DNA of 64,000 nt from Phycisphaerae bacterium. GTDB taxonomy: Bacteria; Planctomycetota; Phycisphaerae; UBA1845. The notes under the pieces were generated by a model. That model saw nothing but the letters and a program-made list of their open reading frames with translations. It was not told the DNA's origin and made no database searches. The DNA lies in NCBI GenBank assembly GCA_963666835.2, contig CAXXGO010000006.1, positions 992,001 to 1,056,000 of the forward strand. Direction: 5' to 3'. Of this stretch, positions 41,942 through 49,301 are shown piece by piece. Made by a program: the position numbers and the translations under genes. How positions within the stretch are numbered: the first letter of the stretch is position 1; each line of letters starts with the position of its first letter.

Positions 41942-42110
41942 TGTTCGGCCAGACCACCGCACGATGCCTGTAACCGTCCAAACCATTGCGTAACGGCTAT
42001 AACCGTCGAGACCATCGCACGACGCCCGTGATCCGACGCCACTAGCCACATATCCGCGTCCGGGACGCCTGTAACCGTCCAAAATGCCCCATGACGCCCG
42101 TAACCGTCCG
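41942..42110. repeat. Degenerate 29-bp tandem repeat
   Basis: TAACCGTC core at 41971, 42000, 42072 and 42101, with a variant at 42029. Confidence 0.65.
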
Positions 42111-42317
42111 GCTCCGGTCGCGCCGGCAGATTATCGGATTAAGACTTGTTTTTCGGACCCGGTTAAGCTAGGCTATCGGACTCGGGAGTGCGCGTATCAG
42201 GGGTACGGGCCGCGCACTTCAACGATGGAGAAAAGGGAGCGGAAGCCCACACCTCTGAATACGGGAAATAACTGTGCGCCGGCGGCCAGGGCGGGTCGTT
42301 CGGGAAAGGAGTGGAAG

Positions 42318-44195
42318 ATGGAGTGGCGTCATTTGTGGGGCGGATTCGTTGCGGTGATTGTGCTCGTGTTCTTGGGCCTTACGGCCAATCCGGCGACCTC
42401 GGCCCCTCTGCCGGATACGGAAGCCTGCTGCGTTGGCGACGGAGATGTGTGCTTCAACATGCCGCCGGATGCGTGCATTGACGAAGGCGGCGGGACCCCG
42501 CAGGGCCCGGGTACGTACTGCCTCGGGGACGGCAACGGCAACGGGATTGACGACGCCTGCGAGGGCGGTGCGGAGACGCAGGCCTGCTGCCTGCCGGACG
42601 GTAGTTGTGTTGACGTCGACCCGATGGAGTGCGTGGAGAGCCTTGGCGGCGCGGCGCAGGGAACTGAAACCGTTTGCACCGAGCCGGCCGCCTGCTGCCT
42701 GCCGGACGACAGTTGTGCCAACCTGGACCCGCTCTGTTGTCTTGAGCAGGGCGGCGACTCTGTGGCGGGGTGGTGCTCCACTCCCGAAGCCTGTTGCATG
42801 CCGGACGGCACTTGTGTCGAGCTGGATCCCGCCTGCTGCACCGCCGAGGGCGGTACTCCGCAAGGCGCCGGTACGACCTGCACCGCTGTCGAGGCTTGTT
42901 GCCTGCCGGACGGAACTTGTGCCGCGTTGGACCCGCTATGTTGCACTGCCGAGGGCGGTACTCCGCAGGGTGCGGGCTCTGTTTGCACCGCCGTCGAGGC
43001 TTGCTGCCTTTCGGATGGCGCTTGTGCCGATCTCGACCCACTGTGTTGCATCGCGGAGGGTGGTACTCCCCAGGGGCCCGGAACGGCATGTTCCGCCGTT
43101 GATGCCTGTTGCCTTCCTGATGGGACGTGCATTATGGCAGACCCCGCCTGTTGTGCGGATCTCGGCGGTGTGACCCAAGCCGGCCAGGCCTGCACGGCCG
43201 TCGAAGCTTGCTGCCTTTCGGACGGAACCTGTGCCGAAATGGACCCGCTCTGCTGTGCGGCCGAGGGTGGCGTTCCTCAGGGTATCGGCTCGGTATGCAC
43301 GGCCGCGGAAGCCTGCTGCCTGCCGGACGATACCTGTGCTGAGCTTGACCCGCTTTGCTGCGCCAGCCAGGGCGGAACTCCTCAAGGTGCCGGTACGGTA
43401 TGTACGGCCGTGGAGGCCTGCTGCCTGCCGGATAACACCTGTGCCGATCTTGATCCGCTCTGCTGTGCCGACTTGGGGGGTGTTTCCGAAGGTGCCGGTA
43501 CGCAATGTACTGATGTGGCGCCATGCTGCCTGGCGGACGGAACGTGCCTGATGGTCGATCCTTTGTGTTGTGTTGAACTCGGGGGTACGGTGCAGGCCGG
43601 CGGTGGTGCTTGCACGGCTGAAGAAGGTTGCTGTTTTGCCGACGGAACGTGCGCTACGCTTGATCCGCTCTGCTGTATCGACCAGGGCGGGACCCCGCAG
43701 GGTGCCGGTACGGTTTGCACGGCCGTTGAGGGCTGCTGCTTCGGCGACGGCACCTGTACCGATCTCGACCCGCTCTGTTGTCTTGAGCAGGGCGGAACAC
43801 CGCAAGGCGCCGGCACGGTCTGTACGGAAGAGCAGGCATGCTGCGACCCGGCCAGCGGCGTGTGCGTAATGCTCGACCCGCTGTGCTGTGCGAACCAGGG
43901 CGGCTCGCCGCAGGGCGCCGGCAGCTATTGCAGTGCCTATCAGGCGTGCTGCTATCCGGACGATACCTGTCGGAATATGGACCCGGCGTGCTGTGTGGAT
44001 CAGGGCGGAGTGCCCGGCGGATCCGGTTCGGCGTGCGAGGGTGACTGGAACGGCGACGGGGCGGACGACTTCTGCCGGTCGCCTTGGGAAGACGAGATTC
44101 CCACGACGTCGACGTGGGGGTTGATTACCCTGGCTCTGCTGCTGCTCGTTGCGGGTAAGGTGTACTTCGGTCGGCGGACTTCGCCCGTCGCGTAA
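42318..44195 (+). CDS. Cys-rich repeat surface protein with IPTL-CTERM sorting signal
   Basis: Signal peptide; about 15 units of ~35 aa (EACCLPDGTCxxLDPLCCxxEGGTPQGAGTVCTAV); tail IPTTSTWGLITLALLLLVAGKVYFGRR; AAGGAG RBS. Confidence 0.9.
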   Translation: MEWRHLWGGFVAVIVLVFLGLTANPATSAPLPDTEACCVGDGDVCFNMPPDACIDEGGGTPQGPGTYCLGDGNGNGIDDACEGGAETQACCLPDGSCVDVDPMECVESLGGAAQGTETVCTEPAACCLPDDSCANLDPLCCLEQGGDSVAGWCSTPEACCMPDGTCVELDPACCTAEGGTPQGAGTTCTAVEACCLPDGTCAALDPLCCTAEGGTPQGAGSVCTAVEACCLSDGACADLDPLCCIAEGGTPQGPGTACSAVDACCLPDGTCIMADPACCADLGGVTQAGQACTAVEACCLSDGTCAEMDPLCCAAEGGVPQGIGSVCTAAEACCLPDDTCAELDPLCCASQGGTPQGAGTVCTAVEACCLPDNTCADLDPLCCADLGGVSEGAGTQCTDVAPCCLADGTCLMVDPLCCVELGGTVQAGGGACTAEEGCCFADGTCATLDPLCCIDQGGTPQGAGTVCTAVEGCCFGDGTCTDLDPLCCLEQGGTPQGAGTVCTEEQACCDPASGVCVMLDPLCCANQGGSPQGAGSYCSAYQACCYPDDTCRNMDPACCVDQGGVPGGSGSACEGDWNGDGADDFCRSPWEDEIPTTSTWGLITLALLLLVAGKVYFGRRTSPVA

Positions 44196-44258: not shown

Positions 44259-44482
44259 TATGGCGGATCCAGGAAAGCGTGTTGGTTCTTCGCGCTGTTG
44301 TGTCATGGTTCTGTCATTGAGAGGTCGGGCGCGCCCCGTTGGGGTCGAAGAGACGCAACGTCGGTGTACCCAGGGTAGCCGCTGCGCAGCAACCCTGGGC
44401 TATAGGACGTAACGCCTACCTTCCTGACATATGTCCACCCGGGTACCTTGGTAACGGACTTCGGGACTTGGGAGGACTACGC

Positions 44483-45334
44483 ATGGGGCTGCGGAACAAG
44501 AAGAAGGAGAGGCTTGAGCGTCTTGACTCGAAGACACTGGATGCCAAGTTTTTGCACGAAATCAAGCACGGACTCCATTGTTCGCCATTCGAGGCCGAGG
44601 CGGTTCTCGATGTGGTCAAGGAAGTTTACTTCCCGTACCTCGATGAACACGCCGGCAAGGCCCCACCTGGCAAGATTGGCTTGGTCGTCGTCGACGCCGA
44701 CGAGCCTGCCGGGAAACCCGTCTGCGAATGCCAGAAGCAGAACGTGTGCCTGACAATCCACCGAGGTGCAGAGGATGATCGACTTCTGGAGGAGGAGGGG
44801 CCGGTCGGCTTTCGACAAGCCCGCATCCCACCGCTTTGCCAAGAAGCCCTGAGTCAAGGTGGGCTGCTCACGCGCGAAGATCTGGCCTACCGGATGTTCT
44901 TTGTTACGCCACGAACCATTACGCGCGATTTGAACGCTCTCCGGAGTGCGTATCCCGGGGTGCTTATTCCTCTGCGAGGAATCGTACACGATCTTGGTCC
45001 CGTGTTGACTCATCGCAGCCAAATCGTGCGTTTGGCTCTGGAGGGAAAGACGACCTCACAGATCTGCACCATGCTTCGCCATTCACCGGCGGCTGTAGCG
45101 AACTACGTCTCGACATTCACCCGTTGTGCGCAGTTGGCAAAGAAAGGTATGCAGGTCGGGCAAATCGCCTTCCTTCTGCGGAGAGGCAAGCGGTTGGTAC
45201 AACAGTACCTTGATCTCCTCGACGAATGCGCGGTCGACAAGAACATGGGCTATCACCTGGAAGAACTGATGCGCCTGGGTTGTTGTGGCGGGGGGAAAAA
45301 GGGACACGGTGAAGAGGGAAGATCCGATGGGTAA
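44483..45334 (+). CDS. DUF1670-like protein, copy A (283 aa)
   Basis: GGAGG RBS at 44471; LCQEALSQGGLLTREDLA...PLRGIVHDLGPVLTH...HSPAAVANY. Family recognised from memory and needs an HMM check. Confidence 0.8.
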   Translation: MGLRNKKKERLERLDSKTLDAKFLHEIKHGLHCSPFEAEAVLDVVKEVYFPYLDEHAGKAPPGKIGLVVVDADEPAGKPVCECQKQNVCLTIHRGAEDDRLLEEEGPVGFRQARIPPLCQEALSQGGLLTREDLAYRMFFVTPRTITRDLNALRSAYPGVLIPLRGIVHDLGPVLTHRSQIVRLALEGKTTSQICTMLRHSPAAVANYVSTFTRCAQLAKKGMQVGQIAFLLRRGKRLVQQYLDLLDECAVDKNMGYHLEELMRLGCCGGGKKGHGEEGRSDG

Positions 45335-46100
45335 GCCGCGAGACACCAACAGCAGAAGATACAGTCCCCTGCAGGCGAAAACGCTGAGAAACGTGTTGGC
45401 TCACCGCATCGAAACGGAGTTTCCACGCATAGGCGGCCCACGGATTCGCAACCTGTGCGCAGAGATGATCCTTGAGGTCATCGGTGCCCACGTTCTCCCG
45501 AAGGAGCATATCCAACATGGTCAGATACTCTGGATGGCGATCAGCAGCGCAGATCCCCCGAGTCAGCGTCGACGGATTGAGGATACCGATCTGCTTCCGG
45601 TGGTCTTGGACGTGAGTACCTTCGAGGATATCGAGATGCGTTTGCAGAAGAAGGGACGTGGAGAGTTGCTCTTACAAAAGAGCTTGAGGTTATGCCGACA
45701 GGCGTACGAACAAGGGGGCGTTCTGTCCAACTCTGATCTCTCGGAGTTGTTAGCAGTCAATGCGTCGGACGTCTCGCGATTGTTGGCGGCGTACGAACGC
45801 GAGACCGGTCAGATCGTCCCACGTCGCGCTACTGTCCACGATGTCGGCACAGGGCTTACGCACAAACGGATCATCTGTTTCAAACATTACGCAGAAGGCA
45901 AAGCGGCTAACGAAGTGGCTCGGGAAACGTACCACAGCCTTGAGGCTGTGGATCGTTACCTGGGCCAGTACGATCGCGTCCGCCACTGCCATCTTCAGGG
46001 GCTGACGGCAAAGGAGACAGCCCATGCTTTAGGTTGCAGCATCTTCCTGGTTCAGGAGTACCTGGAGATCGATCATGAGTTGGAGGGCCAGCATGCTTGA
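45327..46100 (+). CDS. DUF1670-like protein, copy B (257 aa)
   Basis: Overlaps ORF A by 8 nt; LCRQAYEQGGVLSNSDLS...PRRATVHDVGTGLTH...HSLEAVDRY. Confidence 0.8.
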   Translation: MGKPRDTNSRRYSPLQAKTLRNVLAHRIETEFPRIGGPRIRNLCAEMILEVIGAHVLPKEHIQHGQILWMAISSADPPSQRRRIEDTDLLPVVLDVSTFEDIEMRLQKKGRGELLLQKSLRLCRQAYEQGGVLSNSDLSELLAVNASDVSRLLAAYERETGQIVPRRATVHDVGTGLTHKRIICFKHYAEGKAANEVARETYHSLEAVDRYLGQYDRVRHCHLQGLTAKETAHALGCSIFLVQEYLEIDHELEGQHA

Positions 46101-46309
46101 CTCGATGGCACAGCACGTCAGACTTGTGTGTGCTGGTCGAGAGGACAGGGCTCTGCTGAGGAGCACCCCGAGCGCTCGTACCAGTGCCGGGACAGGCGCG
46201 GGAGTCTGCATGCACGGCGGGCTCTCGCTCTCCCTGGCCTGTTCTGGCTCCCAAGCGACAAACCTTGGGGGTCTGGGGGCAAAGCCCCCGGTGATCGCCA
46301 CACGGTCGC
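46101..46309 (+). ncRNA. Candidate structured ncRNA or cis-acting right end of the DUF1670 element
   Basis: Consecutive stems: CTCGA/TCGAG with CAGCAC/GTGCTG; AGGACAGG/CCTGTTCT; CCCAAG/CTTGGG; GGGGGC/GCCCCC; GTGATCG/CGGTCGC. Transcription cannot be shown from sequence. Confidence 0.4.
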
Positions 46310-46559
46310 GGTGGACATATGTCACTATCTTCGGCGTATGTTGGGATCGCGGCTCATACTAATGCCCCCGGGCGGTATTGAGTTCTCAGGTGCCTGTCTT
46401 TTTGGGCCGTTTCCGACGATGAATCGCGGGAAGATGTAGGCGGGCAGGTGTAGTCCGGCCGAAGCCATGCGGTCTTCATCTTGACACACGTGGGTTGCGG
46501 GTCTACGGTCCATCGCGCGGAGACCGGACGAACGAGGCCGCGGACCTGCCCCGGGCAAC

Positions 46560-49301
46560 ATGGCAAAGACGCTCTATCTCATTGACGGGCACGCTCAGAT
46601 CTACCGGGCGTATTACGCGCCGTTCCGCGAGCTGAACAGTCCGACGGGCGAGCCGACTCGCGCAACGTACGTATTCTGCCAGATGCTTCTGAACCTGATC
46701 CGCGATCGTCGGCCGGATTACCTTGCTATGGTGCTGGATCCGCCGCCGGACGAAGAACGAGGCGTCTTTAGGTACGAGATCGACAACCGCTACAAAGCCA
46801 ATCGTGACCCCGGTCCGGAGGATCTCTACGTTCAAGCCCGCCGCATCGTCTCGATCGTTACCGCCTTGGGGATTCCTGTTCACTGTGTGCCCGGCTTCGA
46901 GGCGGACGACCTGCTGGCCACGATCGGGCATCGAATGCGGGACGAGGATGTCGACGTATGCCTGGTAAGCCGCGACAAGGATCTCGAGCAATTGCTGACC
47001 GACCGCCTGCGGCTGTATGACCCGCAGAAGGACGAGGTGATCGACCCGAGGGTGCTTTTGGAGAAGAAGGGCTACTCCCCCGAGCAGGCGGTCGAGGTGC
47101 AGACGCTGGCGGGCGACTCGGCGGACAATATCCCCGGCGTGCCGGGGGTGGGGATCAAGACGGCCGCGAAGCTGGTCAGGAAGTACGGCTCGGCCCAGGC
47201 GGTGCTGGAGCATGCCGCCGAGCTTACCCCGAAGATGCGCGAGAACGTGGCGGCGTTCGCCGAGCAGTTGCCGGTCACTCGTGAATTGGTGACTTTGCGG
47301 AAGGACGTGCCGCTGGACTTTCGCCTTGATGACTGCCGGGCCGACGATGTCGACTTCTCCGCCGTTCGGCCGATCTTCTCGGAGCTGGGTTTTCGCCGGC
47401 TTCTCGATACGCTGGACGGTTTCAAGCCTGCCGCTTCGCCCGTAGATGACAACTCTGCGTCACTAAAACACGCGGGCGAGCCGGAGATTCACGTTGAGTA
47501 TCACCTTGTCGATAGCATCGAGGCGCTCGACGAATTCGTAGCGAAGCTCCGGGCGGACACGCAAGGTAAGGCGTTCGCCCTGGATACTGAGACCACCGGC
47601 TTGAATCCGGTGGCCGCGAAGTTGGTCGGGCTCTCGTTTTCATGGAAGGCGGGGGAAGCGTATTACCTTCCGGTGCGGGCGTCGGTCGGGGCGGTGCTGC
47701 CTGAAGCGGTGGTGGTCGAGAAGCTCAAGCCAATCCTCGAAGACCCCACAGTCGGAAAAGTGGGGCAGAACATCAAATACGATCTCGTCGTGTTGCGCCA
47801 GGTCGGCATCGAGGTGGCGGGGGTCGCGTTTGACACGATGATTGCCAGCTTCCTGCTCGATCCGCATCGGTCTTCGCATTCGATGGACGCGCTGGTTCGG
47901 AACCTGCTCGGACACGAGATGATCCCGATCTCGGATTTGATCGGTAAGGGCAAGAACCAGATTACTATGGACCAGATCGACACGGCCCGCACTGGTGAAT
48001 ACGCCGCGGAGGACGCGGATTTCACCTGGCGGCTCAAGGAGCTCTTCGAGCCTCAGATAACCGGCAGCCCCGTCGAGCGTCTGTTCCATGACACGGAGAT
48101 GCCTCTCGTTGAAGTCCTGGCCTCGATGGAGCACAACGGTATTGCCTTGGATGAGGCGTTGCTCGGGCGCCTTAGTTTCACAATCGCGCAGCGGTTGAGC
48201 GAGCTGACCGCGAGGGTCCATCAGGCGGCCGGGCATTCGTTCAACATCGATTCGCCCAAGCAGCTTGCCGGGGTGCTATTCGACGAGCAGGGGCTGGCCT
48301 CGGTCAAGAAGACCAAGACCGGCAGGAGCACGGACGCCGAGACCCTCAACACGCTGGCGCGGCAGACAGATAACGCGATCCCGCAACTTGTGCTCGAGTA
48401 TCGGGAGCTGGCCAAGCTTAAGAACACCTATGTGGATACGCTGCCGAAGATGATCTGCCGGCGTACCGGACGGCTCCACGCCAGCTTCAACCAGATCGGC
48501 GCGATCACCGGGCGGCTCTCCTCCAGCGATCCGAACTTACAGAATATCCCGATTCGAACTGAGACCGGTCGGCAGATTCGGGCCGCGGTAGTGGCGGGTG
48601 AGCCTGACAATGTGTTGCTGGCGGCCGACTATTCGCAGATCGAGCTGCGGCTCCTGGCCCACTTCTGCCGGGATACCACTCTGCTCGAGGCCTTCCAGAG
48701 CGGGCAGGACATCCATCGAGTCGTCGCGGCCCAGGTCAACGGCGTGTCGGTGGACGAGGTCACCACCGCTCAGCGCAGCGCGGCCAAGGCCGTCAACTTC
48801 GGCATTGTTTACGGGCAATCCGCGTTCGGGCTGGCCAAGGCCCTGGATATTCCGGTAGGCGAAGCCCAGATGTTCATCGATACGTATTTCCTGCGTTATC
48901 CCGGAATCCGACTGTTCATTGATGACTGTATCGCGCGCACGAAGGCCAACGGCTACGCCGAGACGATTCTGGGCCGGCGGCGTCAGGTGCCCGAGCTGCG
49001 CTCCCGCAACCGCCAGCAAGTCGGTCTCGGTGAGCGGATCGCGGTTAATACGGTGGTACAGGGTTCCGCGGCCGATTTGATCAAGCGGGCCATGATCGAT
49101 ATCCACCGCGCGCTGGCGAAGGACGATCAGGTAGTCCGCATGCTGATCCAGGTCCACGACGAGCTGGTCTTCGAGGTCCCCGGCGCGCTGGTTGAGCCGA
49201 CGGCCGCGATGGTTCGAGAGAAGATGGAAAGCGCCATGTCTTTGAACGTGCCCCTGGTGGCTGATGTGGCTTGGGGTCGTACCTGGGCGGAAGCGAAGTA
49301 G
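46560..49301 (+). CDS. polA: DNA polymerase I
   Basis: LIDGH...YRAYYA 5'-3' exonuclease; ALDTETTG 3'-5' exonuclease; TGRLSSSDPNLQNIP, ADYSQIELR, AKAVNFGIVYG, QVHDEL. Confidence 0.98.
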   Translation: MAKTLYLIDGHAQIYRAYYAPFRELNSPTGEPTRATYVFCQMLLNLIRDRRPDYLAMVLDPPPDEERGVFRYEIDNRYKANRDPGPEDLYVQARRIVSIVTALGIPVHCVPGFEADDLLATIGHRMRDEDVDVCLVSRDKDLEQLLTDRLRLYDPQKDEVIDPRVLLEKKGYSPEQAVEVQTLAGDSADNIPGVPGVGIKTAAKLVRKYGSAQAVLEHAAELTPKMRENVAAFAEQLPVTRELVTLRKDVPLDFRLDDCRADDVDFSAVRPIFSELGFRRLLDTLDGFKPAASPVDDNSASLKHAGEPEIHVEYHLVDSIEALDEFVAKLRADTQGKAFALDTETTGLNPVAAKLVGLSFSWKAGEAYYLPVRASVGAVLPEAVVVEKLKPILEDPTVGKVGQNIKYDLVVLRQVGIEVAGVAFDTMIASFLLDPHRSSHSMDALVRNLLGHEMIPISDLIGKGKNQITMDQIDTARTGEYAAEDADFTWRLKELFEPQITGSPVERLFHDTEMPLVEVLASMEHNGIALDEALLGRLSFTIAQRLSELTARVHQAAGHSFNIDSPKQLAGVLFDEQGLASVKKTKTGRSTDAETLNTLARQTDNAIPQLVLEYRELAKLKNTYVDTLPKMICRRTGRLHASFNQIGAITGRLSSSDPNLQNIPIRTETGRQIRAAVVAGEPDNVLLAADYSQIELRLLAHFCRDTTLLEAFQSGQDIHRVVAAQVNGVSVDEVTTAQRSAAKAVNFGIVYGQSAFGLAKALDIPVGEAQMFIDTYFLRYPGIRLFIDDCIARTKANGYAETILGRRRQVPELRSRNRQQVGLGERIAVNTVVQGSAADLIKRAMIDIHRALAKDDQVVRMLIQVHDELVFEVPGALVEPTAAMVREKMESAMSLNVPLVADVAWGRTWAEAK

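Follow-up and report, generated by a model that had tools for sequence, protein, structure and literature searches.

A recently active insertion sequence of an undescribed family, carrying a DUF1670 gene pair and lodged in repetitive extragenic palindromes of a Phycisphaerae bacterium

Several bacterial insertion sequences (ISs), among them IS1397 and ISKpn1, target repetitive extragenic palindromes (REPs), and the transposases that these elements are known to encode are of the IS110 family or of the DDE type. Here we describe a mobile unit of 1913 bp inserted in a REP-like hairpin within a stretch of 64,000 nucleotides of Phycisphaerae bacterium DNA (contig CAXXGO010000006.1, positions 992,001 to 1,056,000; hereafter the window). 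Its genes are two overlapping DUF1670 paralogues. The unit is a real, recently active member of an undescribed IS family, whose transposase is unrecognised.

The closest described elements belong to the IS110 family. Members of its IS1111 group, as presented in the available part of PMC11187229, possess sub-terminal inverted repeats of 11-13 bp enclosed by a 7-bp left and a 3-bp right extension, carry a non-coding region downstream of the transposase gene and generate no true target duplication. The excerpt of PMC13626964 gives CT as the core of IS621, and that of PMC12288879 places the IS110 element ISPpu9 in REPs, together with a selfish small-RNA module, ssr9, that is not needed for transposition. 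ISPa11, ISPpu9, ISPpu10, ISPsy8, ISRm19 and ISRm22 are named as REP-targeting elements in the accessible portion of PMC1525189, and specific insertion into these palindromes is a feature that the present element shares with them. It further resembles IS1111 elements such as ISEc11 and ISPa11 in its sub-terminal repeats, which measure 15 bp and lie 7 nt and 4 nt plus CT inside the ends, compared with 7 and 3 in that group (PMC11187229, in the part available). IS1111, IS621 and our element have in common a CT that is present at both junctions in place of a true target duplication, a strict specificity for site and orientation, the choice of REP hairpins and a long downstream non-coding region producing a structured RNA.

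Such a likeness had already been proposed in the first-pass annotation, which was made from the letters of the window. The architectural part of that proposal (sub-terminal repeats, 7-nt left extension, CT core, REP target and downstream non-coding region) stands, and the DEDD transposase that would complete it is absent according to Pfam. Unlike IS110 and IS1111 elements, the unit encodes neither a DEDD/RuvC-like nor a Transposase_20 domain, and two paralogues rich in helix-turn-helix (HTH) modules take the place of the single transposase. Its RNA also differs from that of IS1111, being preceded by its own promoter, showing no positionally consistent guide complementarity in 16 elements, being dispensable in some lineages and being common to unrelated IS families.

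Boundaries, copies and target of the element

The two sub-terminal repeats, TGACATATGTCCACC and its reverse complement GGTGGACATATGTCA, are perfect over 15 bp (coordinates of all features are collected in Table 1). When up to two mismatches were allowed, the TGACATATGTCCACC pattern was found at two places in the window, i.e. the left and the right repeat only, and in 0 of 100 shuffles were two or more matches obtained. The core of the repeat, GACATATGTC, is a palindrome of 10 bp that is kept in relatives from several phyla. CT is present at both junctions, one of the two being counted with the element, and the repeat finder detected no longer direct repeat flanking the unit. The same program extended the inverted repeat to 28 nt at 79% (44412-44439 / 46310-46337); the outer matches of this longer repeat, ACGCC/GGCGT, belong to the target hairpin as its two arms and lie outside the element. 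In G+C content the element (57.6%) lies below its flanks (61-64%), and at third codon positions it reaches 0.65 vs 0.69-0.79 in the neighbouring genes. Ends with perfect repeats and CT at both junctions, no longer target duplication, only two overlapping paralogous open reading frames (ORFs) with a non-coding right end of about 210 nt (209 nt by our count), and a codon usage less GC-biased than that of the neighbours had all been read in the first-pass annotation, and all of them were recovered here.

A search of the genome (7 contigs, 6.02 Mb) revealed six full copies with identical ends, all of 1913 bp and 99-100% identical, which differ from the window copy at 0, 1 or 3 positions. The 12 matches to the DUF1670 family (PF07900) in this genome correspond to the two genes of each copy. 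All 15 occurrences of the repeat core fall within the six copies or their remnants, and the expectation that the repeats would never be found beside another transposase therefore holds within this genome.

The REP-like unit that houses the element gave 37 BLAST rows in the genome. In eight of them it is uninterrupted, with GGACGTAACGCCT followed directly by TCGGCGTA, i.e. ACGCCT|TCGGCGT, and the exact 13-mer of the intact target, ACGCCTTCGGCGT, occurs 44 times. Therefore, insertion takes place between the first and second loop bases (ACGCC-T^TC-GGCGT). Only a single orientation is observed, the left end adjoining the 5' hairpin arm in 6/6 copies. An orthologous empty site is present among the contigs of a public sequencing run (X3), which include a related strain with 19 differences in 616 positions of the flank: in a contig of 4905 nt, position 44415 is joined to position 46329, exactly 1913 bases being skipped, with a 2-base ambiguity. 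In this run the contig of the element reaches a depth of 91.8 vs 12.3 for the flank. The uninterrupted REPs and the empty site thus define a discrete mobile element with exactly the ends, and the kind of empty site, that the initial reading of the sequence had put forward. The element is recently active, and its distribution among kin is patchy (DUF1670 in 3/60 relatives).

Homologues of the second protein, ORF2, are numerous: 1453 were found at E<=1e-5, and of the best 120 of these about 114 reside on contigs shorter than 4 kb, as expected of repeats that break assemblies. A profile search gave 1190 representatives at 50% identity. We fetched 56 loci from species-representative genomes of Planctomycetota, Acidobacteriota, Chloroflexota, Verrucomicrobiota, Lentisphaerota and others; the counts that follow cover loci with both ends present. 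Ends bounded by inverted repeats, predicted for other DUF1670-pair loci from the window alone, were indeed observed among the fetched loci. The palindromic repeat cores vary with the protein clade (GACATATGTC, GACAATTGTC or GCCAWWTGGC). The extensions are of 7-8 nt on the left and 6-7 nt on the right; in the main clade the left one reads ACCTTC(C/T)N in 19 elements out of 20 (L055 having ACCATCTT instead), and the right one reads NNNATCT. In 19/20 main-clade cases insertion has occurred after the first loop base of a hairpin with a GC stem of 4-8 bp and a loop of about 3 nt (exactly 3 in 17), and the targets of different elements are nearly the same, namely YCCCT|NCGGGR hairpins. An identical dinucleotide is present at both junctions of 19 out of 21 elements (18 with CT/CT, L055 with GT/GT; L038 and L046 are mismatched). 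The core of L055 has changed on both sides together, which is compatible with a staggered cut of 2 bp as well as with a crossover of 2 bp that involves a joined-end donor. Multiple copies are found elsewhere too, with four loci in one Acidobacteriota genome and three in one Planctomycetota genome, and PF07900 also matches in Methanosarcina acetivorans, which served as a control genome.

All copies adjoin REP-type repeats, and a two-gene regulatory cassette spread by recombination between such repeats, rather than a transposon, might leave this picture. We regard such an origin as scarcely credible, taking into account that the boundaries are identical to the base at six loci whose right flanks are unrelated to each other, that the empty site is exact and that the same bounded unit recurs in distant phyla with hairpin targets of its own.

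Three remnants of the element were also noted in the genome. The first is a REP loop with a 25-bp residue composed of the left extension, one palindrome and the right extension, and looks as if the two repeats had recombined or collapsed through their palindromic cores. The second forms a perfect palindrome of two right ends and their flanks, and the third consists of a solitary right end that retains 25 nt of internal sequence. These structures may record deletion or aberrant recombination at the palindromes.

Table 1. Location of the features discussed in the text (positions in the window, unless a contig, C, or a fetched locus, L, is named)
Feature	Position	Strand	Basis or remark
Mobile unit	44418-46330		1913 bp
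Left part of target, REP-like unit	44369-44417	+	first hairpin 44369-44399
Second hairpin, 5' part	44412-44417	+	arm ACGCC 44412-44416, first loop base T 44417; CT 44416-44417, shared core
Left terminal extension ACCTTCC	44418-44424	+	outside left repeat; same in 6/6 copies
Left sub-terminal inverted repeat TGACATATGTCCACC	44425-44439	+	sequence, repeat finder, pattern search
ORF1, 283 aa, DUF1670 paralogue with HTH domains	44483-45334	+	Pfam
ORF2, 257 aa, DUF1670 paralogue	45327-46100	+	Pfam
Promoter-like site, TTGACT-16 nt-CAGACT	46097-46124	+	first hexamer overlaps ORF2 stop codon
Non-coding right end	46101-46309		209 nt
Structured non-coding RNA module, ~165 nt	46131-46296	+	covariation, covariance model
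Right sub-terminal inverted repeat GGTGGACATATGTCA	46310-46324	+	reverse complement of TGACATATGTCCACC
Right terminal extension, CTAT + CT core	46325-46330	+	CTAT 46325-46328, outside right repeat; CT 46329-46330; same in 6/6 copies
Right part of target	46331-46338	+	loop bases TC, 3' arm GGCGT, then A
IS110-family copies	C6:1566813-1568639 (L094:201-2027), C6:1727582-1729408, C6:2672721-2674492, C7:69788-71613, C1:1128875-1130701
RNA behind rve ORFs	L099:592-755, L109:1501-1634, L100:1501-1644	same strand	relatives G007, G025, G034
Solo copy of promoter and RNA	C6:796203-796366		loci L007, L096
Remnant 1	C6:739675-739765
Remnant 2	C5:242160-242260
Remnant 3	C6:1881239-1881287
703-aa cysteine-rich ORF	42084-44195	+
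DNA polymerase I gene	46560-49301	+	Pfam

The DUF1670 proteins

ORF1 and ORF2 overlap by 8 nt, the ATG of ORF2 lying 8 nt before the end of the ORF1 stop codon, and they are translationally coupled. The two proteins are 26% identical over 250 residues (E 4e-16). Both exceed the curated cut-off of PF07900 (25 bits), with 129.3 bits for ORF1 (1.8e-37) and 168.7 bits for ORF2 (1.6e-49), which confirms the suspected membership of DUF1670; ORF1 additionally matches HTH_23 (1.6e-5). Between lineages the proportion of nonsynonymous differences (pN) is 0.13-0.25 vs 0.54-0.78 for synonymous ones (pS) over both genes, and 0.13-0.21 vs 0.64-0.78 for ORF1, with synonymous sites saturated. Both genes are under purifying selection, and selection therefore maintains the proteins as well as the repeat cores and terminal extensions.

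At E<=1, Pfam identified no DEDD, DDE/rve, HUH or serine-recombinase family in either ORF, in agreement with the first-pass annotation. The IS110-family domains PF01548 and PF02371 are likewise absent at this threshold, and the same scan detects both of them in the genuine IS110-family element of this genome. Pfam revealed no resolvase catalytic domain at E<=1; structurally, the alignment with Tn3 resolvase was limited to its C-terminal HTH (Z 5.5 over 46 residues). Phage_integrase, whose catalytic fold carries the residues R-K-H-R-H/W-Y, gave no Pfam match, and there is no tyrosine recombinase among the fold matches listed. No HUH enzyme is among the structural matches listed, a list that does not amount to an exclusion. 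The NCBIfam model of IS630 covers residues 178-214 of ORF1 only, i.e. an HTH, at E 0.065 and 12.7 bits vs a cut-off of 100. A sequence-profile search of the Protein Data Bank (PDB) produced nothing below E 0.03, a protein atlas only small HTH_23 clusters (<=0.81), PADLOC and PHROGs nothing meaningful, and a tblastn search of plasmids no match. For every known transposase family to which it was applied, the defining Pfam test was negative.

This may be illustrated by comparison with three further groups. IS630 and Tc1-mariner elements duplicate a TA target, possess terminal repeats and encode a DDE/D transposase with an HTH_23-type (paired-like) module. Our element shares with them a 2-bp sequence at both junctions and an HTH_23-type DNA-binding module, and differs in that its dinucleotide is CT in a hairpin loop instead of TA, that it lacks a DDE/D domain, that it encodes two proteins and that its repeats are sub-terminal. 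In IS200/IS605 elements, sub-terminal palindromes, lack of target duplication and insertion in one orientation 3' of a short fixed sequence are typical. The present element resembles them in having sub-terminal palindromes, no target duplication and single-orientation insertion just 3' of a short fixed sequence; unlike them it has no Y1 HUH TnpA, its two ends are inverted copies of each other, and its palindromes, of only 10 bp, are too short to form stable hairpins. From IS3 and retroviral-type integrases it is distinguished by the absence of an rve match at E<=1.

Comparison of 71 diverse ORF2 representatives revealed four invariant residues (G174, H179, H203 and Y211) and several near-invariant ones (D172, K180, R121, D137 and a few others). 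In an alignment of 24 ORF1 orthologues the homologous D170, G172, H177, R178, H200 and Y208 are kept, H177, H200 and Y208 being invariant in all 24. The motif common to both paralogues is D-x-G-x4-H-(K/R), followed about 24 residues further on by H-x7-Y. The invariant H...H-x7-Y spacing is reminiscent of box II of tyrosine recombinases, and in the structural model it lies within an HTH. These conserved residues may constitute an active site or contacts to the conserved repeat. In the AlphaFold model of ORF2 (pLDDT 77.6), a helical N-terminal part with a beta-hairpin is predicted to be followed by a winged helix (~106-173) and two more HTH units (176-257). The structural matches to this model include Topo VI-A/Spo11, through its winged helix, with Z values of 6.3 and 5.6 that do not exceed those of the remaining rows. 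Natural ORF1-ORF2 fusion proteins (P0121 and P0123) and a triple form (P0124) also exist. Longer homologues contain no catalytic partner domain, only DUF1670-DUF1670 fusions and, in one protein, a DnaG zinc ribbon that is probably a read-through. The predicted ORF1-ORF2 complex scored 0.14 vs a mark of 0.32, which is not evidence either way, and a profile-profile comparison of ORF1 and ORF2, in which the ORF1 C-terminus was aligned to the N-terminal extensions of some rows, was uninformative.

We consider it rather probable that the element is an autonomous member of an undescribed IS family and that the DUF1670 pair acts as its recombinase. Several observations weigh against this reading. Besides DUF1670 and HTH, Pfam at E<=1 returned for ORF1 and ORF2 only a weak ribosomal S13/S15 N-terminal row. 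Foldseek found nothing in the PDB at E<=1e-3 for the ORF2 model, a wide structural search with the whole model retrieved only winged-helix and HTH rows (best Z 6.5), and the N-terminal 110 residues modelled alone (pLDDT 66.8) had a best match of Z 3.8. The invariant His/His/Tyr residues lie in a predicted HTH and may do no more than read the very conserved repeat. A probe of abutted right and left ends, the circular junction put forward in the first-pass annotation, gave 0 matches in the genome or the fetched loci, and a degenerate joined-end pattern 0 matches in metagenome contigs; both searches covered assemblies only and are weak evidence because assemblies drop rare forms. Finally, an IS110-family transposase is present in 10/10 other DUF1670-bearing genomes vs 23/60 relatives, which would be compatible with help in trans; this co-occurrence is suggestive, but genome size and assembly type confound it and IS110-family genes are frequent anyway (6/14 control genomes), and it was given no weight in choosing between the readings.

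A less probable, though serious, possibility is that the DUF1670 proteins are site-recognition or architectural factors only, which recruit a host enzyme for cutting and joining, e.g. a REP-associated tyrosine transposase, a Xer-type recombinase, a topoisomerase or a structure-specific nuclease. Their appearance as stacked DNA-binding domains with no catalytic fold agrees with such a role, as does the target: a REP hairpin is a known substrate of host enzymes, REP-associated Y1 transposases being an example. Against it, the family occurs in many bacterial phyla and in Methanosarcina acetivorans, and the host partner would therefore need to be nearly universal; moreover, the element ends (extensions and CT core) are conserved independently of the host, and a host gene is linked to the element in 0/56 loci.

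A search for an alternative junction, formed through the palindrome, gave four matches, all of them AT-rich terminator hairpins unrelated to the element. A further observation concerns the left end, where the CCTTCC of the extension is complementary to the GGAAGG/GGGAGG ribosome-binding stretch preceding ORF1 in several elements; this could mask the ORF1 start site in read-through transcripts. A consensus scan found no promoter-like site between the left end and ORF1 (44418-44482).

The right-end promoter and RNA

The non-coding right end contains a promoter-like site and a structured RNA. In 21/21 RNA copies of the DUF1670 type, TTGA(C/T)N is separated by a 16-nt spacer (19 nt in four of them) from a second hexamer located 14 nt before GAGAGG; the second hexamer of the window copy is the weakest of the 21, and the consensus promoter scan omitted the window site. 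The RNA has a 5' domain that is conserved (GAGAGG...GGGC...CCCGAGCGCUC), together with a long closing helix that encloses a variable hairpin, an AAGCGAYAAAC motif and one G/C hairpin. Of its 40 consensus pairs, 26 exhibit compensatory changes; 92.4% of cells are paired vs 39-51% when the partners are slid, values that 0/500 shuffles reach, and G-U pairs fix the plus strand. The covariance model (R1) scores 149 bits at the window RNA. Rfam gave no family match between 44000 and 46800, only a chance microRNA match (E 0.99).

With R1, 12 copies were found in the genome: six in the element described here, one in a solo remnant and five in an IS110-family element. The latter, 1827 bp in length and present in five copies (PF02371 1e-17, PF01548 4.8e-7), possesses sub-terminal repeats CATGAAAGGC/GCCTTTCATG, and its transposase gene is followed downstream by a 560-nt region in which the RNA lies on the strand opposite to that gene and lacks the conserved promoter. 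In the relatives the RNA is more frequent than DUF1670 (12/60 vs 3/60), and in three of them an rve (IS3-type) ORF on the same strand directly precedes it. The RNA is missing from the four-copy Acidobacteriota element (L042, L043, L047, L048) and from L046, whose right ends measure only 60-80 nt.

Given the resemblance to IS1111, the element might instead be a non-autonomous passenger that a recombinase of the IS110/IS1111 family mobilizes in trans, in the way ISPpu9 mobilizes the ssr9 module, and the RNA would then act as a bridge or seeker RNA. In support of this one can quote the IS1111-like architecture, the CT core of IS621 (PMC13626964, in the part available), the residence of ISPpu9 in REPs with a selfish small-RNA module (excerpt of PMC12288879), the presence of the same RNA in the five-copy IS110-family element of this genome, and the co-occurrence described above. 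We nevertheless judge this explanation unlikely. In the IS110-family element the RNA is antisense to the transposase gene and promoterless, the sub-terminal repeat CATGAAAGGC and the targets differ from those of the DUF1670 element, and the DUF1670 repeat core is found nowhere else in the genome. The same RNA is also associated with IS3-type genes and absent from the five loci named above, no positionally consistent complementarity to the targets appeared in 16 elements (see below), two conserved genes under purifying selection would not be expected of a passive passenger, and the co-occurrence is confounded as stated.

A guide function of the RNA could also be exerted together with the DUF1670 pair itself, as an RNA-guided recombinase whose right-end RNA pairs with target and donor in the manner of a bridge RNA. 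This idea, which we hold to be very improbable, is in keeping with the position of a structured, ~165-nt RNA next to the right end and with the conserved promoter that this RNA possesses. RNA-target complementarity was sought in 16 elements and none was positionally consistent: the best stretches were mostly of 4-7 nt, with two of 10 and 11 nt, at scattered RNA positions. The variable hairpins differ completely among elements whose YCCCT|NCGGGR targets are near-constant, active multicopy elements exist without the RNA, and the RNA is common to IS3-type and IS110-family elements.

Pairing of the GGGGC/GCCCC hairpin of the RNA with the target arms was rejected, because this hairpin is constant where the target changes (ACGCC in the window, GTCCC in L039). 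Taking into account the lack of complementarity, the RNA-less elements, the antisense IS110-family copies and the IS3-type copies, we read it as a portable accessory of several IS families and not as a guide. Its best analogue is ssr9 of ISPpu9, a small-RNA gene in the ends of REP-lodged ISs (PMC12288879, excerpt). In the comparison made it shows no sequence relationship to ssr9 (no Rfam match), and, unlike ssr9, it occurs in at least three unrelated element types.

The solo RNA copy is diverged (~79% identity), comprises the promoter, the RNA and the repeat-like sequence GGGACAATTGTCA, and is situated behind an unrelated ORF with no DUF1670 gene nearby; it represents what is left in this genome of a second, related lineage of elements. 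Public runs X1, X5 and X6 contain contigs that have in common only the RNA 5' domain (~46142-46175), with very different sequence on both sides, one of these contigs having TATAAT in its upstream stretch. In those samples the 5' domain thus circulates in other contexts as well.

Proposed mechanism, significance and neighbouring genes

For the element as an autonomous IS, the following mechanism can be envisaged. ORF1 and ORF2, through their HTH and winged-helix modules, would bind, as dimers or as a heteromer, both the repeat cores and the target, all of which are palindromic, and the pair itself would break and rejoin DNA at the 2-bp core. Strand exchange would proceed either through a staggered cut of 2 bp or through a crossover of 2 bp with a donor whose ends are joined (a circle), the candidate active site being formed by H179, H203 and Y211 in ORF2 and by H177, H200 and Y208 in ORF1. 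The right-end promoter and RNA would be an optional accessory, perhaps an expression or control module reading out across the end. Whether the pair represents a new class of transposase or site-specific recombinase, with a His/His/Tyr plus Asp plus Lys/Arg site in HTH modules instead of an RNase H-like, HUH, serine- or tyrosine-recombinase fold, and with hairpin or cruciform recognition and 2-bp core exchange, appears to us an evenly balanced question.

If the pair is catalytic, it would constitute a transposase class distinct from the known ones (DDE, DEDD, HUH, serine and tyrosine). The element is exact in its specificity, entering a hairpin loop at a single phosphodiester and in one orientation, and the system might, if this is true, offer a small and possibly engineerable site-specific integrase. 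The IS family would then be widespread, with about 1,200 protein clusters at 50% identity in bacteria and archaea. Thousands of genes annotated as 'DUF1670' or 'CsgD-family regulator', which pipelines now call hypothetical proteins or regulators, would have to be re-annotated as transposase genes, and many 2-kb contig breaks in metagenome assemblies would find an explanation. The element is also a new player in REP biology, and the promoter-plus-RNA module common to DUF1670, IS3-type and IS110-family elements, a portable RNA accessory of ISs, raises a second question. In a literature search whose range excluded about 1.7 million PubMed Central articles and all subscription-only papers, no paper was found on DUF1670, PF07900 or IPR012871, nor on a novel HTH transposase.

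Upstream of the REP-like unit lies an ORF of 703 aa composed of about 17 tandem cysteine-rich units (...ACCLPDGTCxxLDPLCC...GGTPQGAGTxCT...), with a hydrophobic stretch at its N-terminal and C-terminal ends and no Pfam match at 1e-5. On the other side, a DNA polymerase I gene (polA; DNA_pol_A 9.1e-150, plus exonuclease domains) starts 229 nt downstream of the right end. Since it is located downstream of, and on the same strand as, the outward-reading promoter of the element, the insertion may alter polA transcription.

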